In this document: one piece after another, positions 1 through 713 of the stretch | Layout: the number at the start of each line of letters is the position of its first letter | Position numbering within the stretch: the stretch's first letter is position 1 | Assembly: GCF_003334305.1 (NCBI RefSeq) | Contig: NZ_QOWS01000071.1 | DNA length: 713 nt | Reading direction: 5' to 3' (one strand) | Origin: Escherichia coli | GTDB lineage: Bacteria; Pseudomonadota; Gammaproteobacteria; Enterobacterales; Enterobacteriaceae | Translations under genes and position numbers: made by a program | The notes under the pieces: generated by a model | What the model saw: the letters and a program-made list of their open reading frames with translations, nothing else | The model's database searches: none | Told to the model about the DNA's origin: nothing

Positions 1-464
1 TTGTCATGCAGCTCCACCGATTTTGAGAACGACAGCGACTTCCGTCCCAGCCGTGCCAGGTGCTGCCTCAGATTCAGGTTATGCCGCTCAATTCGCTGCG
101 TATATCGCTTGCTGATTACGTGCAGCTTTCCCTTCAGGCGGGATTCATACAGCGGCCAGCCATCCGTCATCCATATCACCACGTCAAAGGGTGACAGCAG
201 GCTCATAAGACGCCCCAGCGTCGCCATAGTGCGTTCACCGAATACGTGCGCAACAACCGTCTTCCGGAGACTGTCATACGCGTAAAACAGCCAGCGCTGG
301 CGCGATTTAGCCCCGACATAGCCCCACTGTTCGTCCATTTCCGCGCAGACGATGACGTCACTGCCCGGCTGTATGCGCGAGGTTACCGACTGCGGCCTGA
401 GTTTTTTAAGTGACGTAAAATCGTGTTGAGGCCAACGCCCATAATGCGGGCAGTTACCCGGCAT
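1..464 (-). CDS. insB: InsB (the B' catalytic part of IS1 transposase), 3'-truncated by the window edge. Annotated ATG at 462-464; 154 complete codons in the window; last complete codon at 3-5 (GAC, Asp); positions 1-2 are the first two bases of the next codon.
   Basis: Manual minus-strand translation from the ATG at 462-464: [154 protein letters not shown], with no in-frame stop. This matches IS1 InsB as I recall it; full InsB is 167 aa, so about 13 codons plus the stop lie outside the window. Confidence 0.9.
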
Positions 465-658
465 CCAACGCCATTCATGGCCATATCAATGATTTTCTGG
501 TGCGTACCGGGTTGAGAAGCGGTGTAAGTGAACTGCAGTTGCCATGTTTTACGGCAGTGAGAGCAGAGATAGCGCTGATGTCCGGCGGTGCTTTTGCCGT
601 TACGCACCACCCCGTCAGTAGCTGAACAGGAGGGACAGCTGATAGAAACAGAAGCCAC
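1..658 (-). CDS. InsAB' transposase: the fusion product of the insA and insB' frames via the -1 frameshift at 401-407, 3'-partial in this window
   Basis: Inference from the intact insA frame, the intact A6C motif and the uninterrupted insB frame downstream, combined with the established IS1 expression mechanism. The fusion is not directly observable from sequence. Confidence 0.8.
383..658 (-). CDS. insA: InsA, the IS1 DNA-binding protein and transposition inhibitor/repressor, 91 aa, GTG start, TAA stop at 383-385
   Basis: Matches the six-frame [38 protein letters not shown]...[18 protein letters not shown]. It has an N-terminal CxxC...CxxC zinc-finger-like motif (C8, C11, C32, C35) and a C-terminal helix-turn-helix-like segment. 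The protein matches IS1 InsA as I recall it, at the expected IS1 coordinates 56-331. Confidence 0.95.
401..407 (-). other. Programmed -1 ribosomal frameshift slippery heptamer A6C (AAAAAAC) that fuses InsA to the InsB' frame
   Basis: Seen: plus-strand gtttttt at 401-407 reads AAAAAAC on the minus strand, within CAC TTA AAA AAC TCA near the end of insA. insA codons begin at positions congruent to 1 mod 3 and insB codons at positions congruent to 2 mod 3, so a -1 slip moves from the insA frame into the insB frame. Established knowledge: the IS1 transposase InsAB' is made by -1 frameshifting at this A6C run. Confidence 0.9.
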
Positions 659-665
659 TGGAGCA

Positions 666-669
666 CCTC
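666..669 (-). other. Ribosome-binding site (GAGG) for insA
   Basis: Seen: GAGG on the minus strand, 7 nt upstream of the insA GTG start codon at 656-658. Confidence 0.5.
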
Positions 670-689
670 AAAAACACCATCATACACTA

Positions 690-702
690 AATCAGTAAGT
701 TG
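690..702 (+). promoter_or_regulatory. Candidate IHF binding site inside IRL
   Basis: Seen: plus-strand AATCAGTAAGTTG matches the IHF consensus WATCAANNNNTTR with one mismatch (G for A at position 6). Established knowledge: IHF binds the ends of IS1. Site is predicted from the motif only. Confidence 0.4.
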
Positions 703-713
703 GCAGCATCACC
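691..713 (-). repeat. IS1 left terminal inverted repeat (IRL), about 23 bp
   Basis: Window 691-713 is atcagtaagttggcagcatcacc; its reverse complement GGTGATGCTGCCAACTTACTGAT is the canonical IS1 end. The matching IRR is outside the window, so the inverted pairing cannot be checked here. Confidence 0.9.

Follow-up and report, generated by a model that had tools for sequence, protein, structure and literature searches.

The window, by which we mean the whole 713-nucleotide stretch of DNA analyzed here, corresponds along its minus strand to the insertion sequence IS1 of the IS1A family, with window positions 1 to 713 matching element positions 713 down to 1 of 768. Very probably it represents 713 of the 768 nucleotides of such an element, the right-hand 55 being absent because the sequence ends there, at a stop likely to be derived from assembly. 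This is a known element with a known kind of assembly limit, and the stop at IS1 position 713 most likely reflects an assembly break that is reproducible and lies beside a SNP that marks the subfamilies of IS1. Among enterobacterial insertion sequences, IS1 is one of the most abundant and most thoroughly studied.

Identity and organization of the element

The minus strand of the window is identical at all 713 of 713 nucleotides (100%) to E. coli copies annotated as 'IS1-like element IS1A family transposase', which bears out the claim of an earlier note on this DNA that the element is an IS1 in minus orientation. A megablast search of 5,426 complete E. coli genomes returned matches in 4,971 of them, at 74,382 places, and numerous copies on chromosomes and plasmids match the window at 100% identity across the full 713 nucleotides. 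At least 5,000 records in the plasmid collection match the window, chiefly from Escherichia, Klebsiella and Salmonella. Twenty phage records also match, P1 among them, and these matches are partly incomplete, with some records covering 23–75% of the query. The full-length InsB protein of this variant is on record in 6,362 blocks.

The 'consensus' IS1 copies of E. coli K-12, IS1A and IS1E (768 bp), share with the window the left inverted repeat (IRL), the insA/insB' arrangement, the A6C motif and the reading frames, and are separated from it by two substitutions, C>T at IS1 position 258 and A>T at position 262. Compared directly with IS1A of K-12 MG1655, 711 of 713 nucleotides are identical, and these two positions (window 456 and 452, respectively) are the only differences. 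The C258T change replaces Ala68 with Val in InsA and InsAB' (A68V relative to K-12 InsA), near the helix-turn-helix (HTH) region. The A262T change is silent in insA and replaces Ser with Cys at residue 5 of the insB ORF. Judged from its sequence, the window is an ordinary, already known element that holds nothing new. The occurrence of 100%-identical copies across many replicons suggests that the variant may be active in transposition.

IS1 is 768 bp in length (PMC12428005). The inverted repeats are bound by its InsA protein, which also represses the IS1 promoter, and infrequent -1 frameshifting at the A6C motif gives rise to the 232-amino-acid InsAB' DDE transposase, which moves the 768-bp IS1 and leaves target duplications of 8 or 9 bp (PMC12428005). 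In K-12, appreciable transposition has been found only for the consensus copies IS1A and IS1E (PMC12428005).

All of the features of the window lie on its minus strand. The IRL (GGTGATGCTGCCAACTTACTGAT) occupies window positions 691–713; its outermost base is window position 713, and the reverse complement of the window begins with it. Overlapping the IRL is a predicted promoter-like site (CTGCCA-16-TATGAT, positions 679–706), the one site found by a consensus scan in which 0.3 were expected. The IS1 promoter P_IS1 is described as weak and partly overlapping the IRL (PMC12428005), which is the same place as the site predicted here.

The insA gene in the ORF list (positions 383–658) encodes 91 amino acids from a GTG start to a TAA stop at window 383–385, or IS1 329–331. 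Its product is predicted to be a zinc-ribbon and HTH repressor. The InsA sequence matches the NCBIfam zinc domain profile NF050000 with 40.9 bits (cut-off 28), and NF033558 matches as well. The InsA gene called in loci L034 and L035, both fetched through the full-length InsB of the window's variant, additionally has recorded entries for Pfam families PF03811 and PF12759. Close to where insA ends is the A6C slippery motif AAAAAAC (positions 401–407, IS1 307–313), a predicted programmed -1 frameshift site leading from InsA into the insB frame. The -1 frame is open from upstream of the motif to window position 1, and window-identical copies carry the annotation 'programmed frameshift'.

The insB frame (positions 1–464) spans 154 codons from an ATG at window 464, or IS1 250. 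With the phase set from window position 713, it contains no stop between window 464 and 3, where its translation ends in ...SVELHD, and window bases 2 and 1 are the opening two bases of the next codon, which encodes Lys. The insB part alone scores 143 bits against NF033558, and the exact truncated InsB has a recorded match to PF03400 (DDE_Tnp_IS1). The insAB' transframe transposase gene (positions 1–658) has 219 of its 232 codons within the window. Against NF033558 (cut-off 100), the reconstructed 219-amino-acid InsAB' fusion reaches 241.5 bits, with an alignment spanning profile positions 1–199 of 199; the 13 missing residues therefore lie outside the conserved core. The stretch flagged in the earlier note, window positions 1–60 (IS1 654–713), is plain insB coding sequence with no separate feature, and window position 1 adjoins a dimorphic base, IS1 714. 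An Rfam scan of both strands gave no match at E≤1.

The missing right end

Exactly 55 nucleotides of the element, IS1 714–768, are absent beyond window position 1. The reverse complement of the window ends in ...GGAGCTGCATGACAA, and all five of the window-identical copies that were available with flanks (L001–L004 from E. coli and L007 from a metagenome) continue with AGTCATCGGGCATTATCTGAACATAAAACACTATCAATAAGTTGGAGTCATTACC to give 768 nucleotides, ending in ...GGAGTCATTACC. The absent segment comprises 13 codons (KVIGHYLNIKHYQ), a TAA stop at IS1 751–753, and the right inverted repeat (IRR), 23 nt long, at 746–768. The two 23-nt arms of the full copy L001, IS1 1–23 and 746–768, are 78% complementary. 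Target duplications of 8 bp in L001 and 9 bp in L002 directly abut element bases 1 and 768, and window position 713 is therefore the terminal base of IS1.

These results agree closely with the earlier note, which had placed the end of the window 55 bp short of the right end of IS1, described the insB frame as still open at window position 1, and held that the IRL side abuts position 713 exactly. It was likewise correct to put the IRR and the insB stop outside the window. The target-site duplications also lie outside, as it stated, since the sequence totals 713 nucleotides and is flankless on both sides. Its caution that completeness, the interrupted gene and membership of a composite transposon could not be judged from the window was justified for a flankless sequence of this length that thousands of records share.

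Among the 76 distinct full-length IS1 copies in the fetched loci, 33 are flanked by a perfect duplication of 8–10 bp (20 of 9 bp, 12 of 8 bp and one of 10 bp), and 43 are not. The earlier note had proposed that an absence of flanking direct repeats would speak against its reading; because 43 of 76 full-length copies lack a perfect duplication, this is a weak test. That most copies have none would fit with IS1 often mediating deletions or with its copies often recombining with one another.

Recurrent contig ends within IS1

The stop at IS1 position 713 is not peculiar to the window. The 154-amino-acid truncated InsB ending in ...SVELHD has been recorded in 55 blocks, and in 53 of them it occurs solely on contigs shorter than 2 kb. 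All ten of the Logan contigs inspected for this protein, which are independent assemblies, carry IS1 1–713 and end exactly at 713. The equivalent truncated protein of the IS1F type is on record in 68 blocks, and its contigs, too, all stop at 713. The names of these IS1F-type contigs indicate NODE_, k119, k127 and k141 assemblies, in addition to Logan (k=31). The end is thus the same at k values of 31, 119, 127 and 141, and is therefore independent of k.

Other ends are also on record. Control truncations one, two and five codons earlier (at 708–710, 705–707 and 693–695) occur in 24, 4 and 14 blocks, respectively, which makes 713 the commonest of the four ends tested, and contigs of exactly 710 nt were seen from different assemblers. 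InsB truncated at 713 is nevertheless scarce compared with the full-length protein (55 versus 6,362 blocks, or roughly 1%). The position at which the earlier note had the sequence end stands, with the refinement that a stop at 713 matches a recurrent assembly break and is probably not arbitrary.

Contigs from unrelated samples and assemblers reproducibly stop at IS1 710 or 713 in loci L009–L018, L024–L033 and L163–L165. In one of these, a metagenome scaffold (L029, positions 1–810), an IS1F-type right end (715–768) is followed by a 43-nt spacer and then by an IS1F-type copy in the same orientation (1–713), so that two IS1 copies lie a mere 43 nt apart. From its first base, IS1 715, to its last, position 713 of the following copy, the scaffold leaves out base 714 alone.

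Base 714 is polymorphic. In an alignment of seven IS1 types, IS1F differs from the window's variant by A>G at 714, and the preceding difference is at 678. When the species-representative genomes were searched with any nucleotide (N) allowed at that base, at least 42 matches with A and at least 42 with G were found among the matches listed. The allele mostly tracks the subfamily; however, mosaics occur, and one Kluyvera genome has both alleles. In E. coli, an IS1A-like right end with 714G is present in 88 of 9,364 matching records. One such copy, in the chromosome of E. coli NT1F25 (L162), is full length with a 9-bp target duplication. It differs from the window's variant only at positions 258, 480 and 714, and the two are identical over IS1 481–713. 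Such IS1A-like mosaics, in contrast to the window's variant, carry 258C, 480G and 714G. The 480G marker of this copy is also present in two Logan contigs (L009 and L017), both of which stop at 713.

We propose that the window is a collapsed-repeat contig of a short-read assembly. Its IRL end would be the repeat boundary, where differing flanks diverge, and its other end would be a fork in the assembly graph between IS1 713 and 714, caused by co-resident copies with A or G at the latter position. Beyond 713 the paths would read A or G and then GTCATCGG. With no more than 54 nt of IS1 left after the SNP, the two alleles would, for k≥55, enter different flanks unjoined and the contig would stop at 713. 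Canonical IS1F was considered as the sole cause of the fork and found insufficient, as IS1A and IS1F share only 679–713 (35 nt) before it. Given so short a shared segment, large-k assemblers require IS1A-like copies with 714G, and such mosaics were later found; they would force a fork directly after window position 1.

A fork of this kind also predicted, from the 710-nt contigs, a variant base at position 711, and 46 E. coli records do contain such a variant, the synonymous C711T. Additionally, the ratio of 714G to 711T records (88:46) parallels the ratio of blocks with ends at 713 and 710 (55:24). The fulfilled prediction and the parallel ratios support the fork as a general explanation for such ends. 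There is a weak point at k=31, where a bubble at 714 could re-close within 715–768, yet the Logan contigs end at 713. We consider it reasonably likely that the window itself was produced by a fork between 713 and 714, and we infer that it stems from one or more full-length copies.

In its general properties the window resembles other collapsed-repeat IS contigs, which likewise have one end at an exact IS boundary and a length below 2 kb, and which show identical end points across many unrelated samples and assemblers. It departs from them in one respect, as a fully collapsed IS1 contig would be 768 nt and the window stops 55 nt early. This shortfall could instead reflect a real truncation, in which a deletion, or a different element inserted between 713 and 714, left a delta-IS1 remnant that has neither the IRR nor the C-terminus of InsB and would be immobile on its own. 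Partial IS1 matches do exist in public records, for example the phage matches that cover 23–75% of the query, and the window itself carries no information past element position 713. However, a true junction would normally leave non-IS1 bases at the end of the contig, and the window has none. All five of the window-identical copies inspected are full-length, and a single deletion does not explain an end that recurs across many assemblers and both IS1 subfamilies. The prior for exactly this base is also only about 1 in 768, and we regard a real truncation as very unlikely. It is just as improbable that the window derives from an IRR-less remnant still encoding InsA and an InsAB' shortened by 13 residues; such a remnant might serve in trans as a source of repressor or transposase for other IS1 copies while being itself immobile.

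An end set when a longer sequence was cut by a scanning pipeline or according to an annotation rule, which would make the deficit meaningless for both assembly and biology, is unlikely, if less so than a remnant. An exact 43-nt pattern spanning the two variant bases had no matches in viral_contigs and none in genome_contigs, which holds the species-representative genomes. The same pattern was found in three contigs of metagenome_contigs, none of them 713 nt long, and the lack of any 713-nt contig with the window's sequence in these three collections speaks for limits imposed afterward. However, the length of the source is itself 713. Furthermore, the window has the terminal base of IS1 at one end and, at the other, the commonest of the four recurrent ends tested, a combination that arbitrary cuts would be unlikely to produce. 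A last group of explanations attributes the stop to an offset that depends on k, either a SNP k-1 nt upstream (IS1 683 at k=31) or a trimmed overlap at k=55, a common final k of SPAdes-type assemblers. The arithmetic is suggestive, since 768-713 is 55 and 713-30 is 683. However, k119, k127, k141, NODE_-type and Logan contigs share one end base, and L029 starts at 715, which leaves a k-dependent offset barely credible. In particular, the trimmed overlap is ruled out by the k31, k119, k127 and k141 contigs that stop at one base, and an incoming branch from a SNP at 683 is ruled out by the independence from k and by the seven aligned IS1 types, which show no difference at that position.

The finding carries little biological weight. 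In practice it serves as a filter, correctly describing missing data rather than a feature. Neither the open insB frame nor the absent IRR should be read as a truncation event. SNPs that lie within k nucleotides of the end of a repeat, such as those at IS1 711 and 714, lead to reproducible early contig ends, and large gene catalogues consequently contain partial InsB 'proteins' that recur.

Other IS1 types and related copies

IS1F (K-12 type IV, with a copy in phage PPompW_EH2246, L019) has the length and organization of the IS1A type, and its last 54 nt (715–768) are identical to the IS1A-type end. However, it differs from the window's variant at 66 positions over 768 nt, including the G at 714, and by its sequence the window is not of this type. 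In K-12, IS1F is reported to be essentially non-transposing (PMC12428005). IS1 has expanded strongly in some single genomes. In the draft genome of Mixta sp. Marseille-Q2659, at least 30 IS1F-like copies were found (L057–L084). Citrobacter amalonaticus AUH_CA_2023_1 has at least 17 IS1 right-end matches on one contig among the matches listed (L098–L114), and 14 of these are IS1A-like.

One copy appears to combine the two subfamilies. In the Klebsiella phage ST974-OXA48phi18.2 (L020), 15 of the 20 differences from the window's variant within the first ~130 nt are those of IS1F. Beyond that point almost no IS1F-specific differences are present, and there are changes also found in the IS1A-like copy of phage P1. 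This arrangement suggests a mosaic IS1 that arose through recombination between subfamilies.

Several related copies carry substitutions in functional elements. The IS1A-like copy on a plasmid of E. coli CFSAN061762 (L160) has an A311T change that turns the A6C motif into AAAATAC and would be expected to hamper the programmed frameshift, yet the record is still annotated as a programmed-frameshift transposase. The copy in phage P1 (L021) has a G757T substitution in its IRR; in its record the repeat is termed 'mutant' and the element is described as possibly defective. Two IRR substitutions, G754T and G757T, are present in the copy on pKL53-L (L161).

Contigs that start or end inside IS1 also occur in metagenome-assembled genomes labelled Lachnospiraceae, Erysipelotrichia, Candidatus Nanosynbacter and 'Proteobacteria bacterium' (L052, L056, L116 and L042–L044), which probably reflects mis-binning of enterobacterial or plasmid fragments and not the presence of IS1 in these lineages. 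The record of Escherichia phage PhiR11_1_star (L023, PV340548.1:1-863) opens exactly at IS1 position 1 and has two IS1 places, which suggests that the ends of the deposited genome were set at an IS1 boundary.
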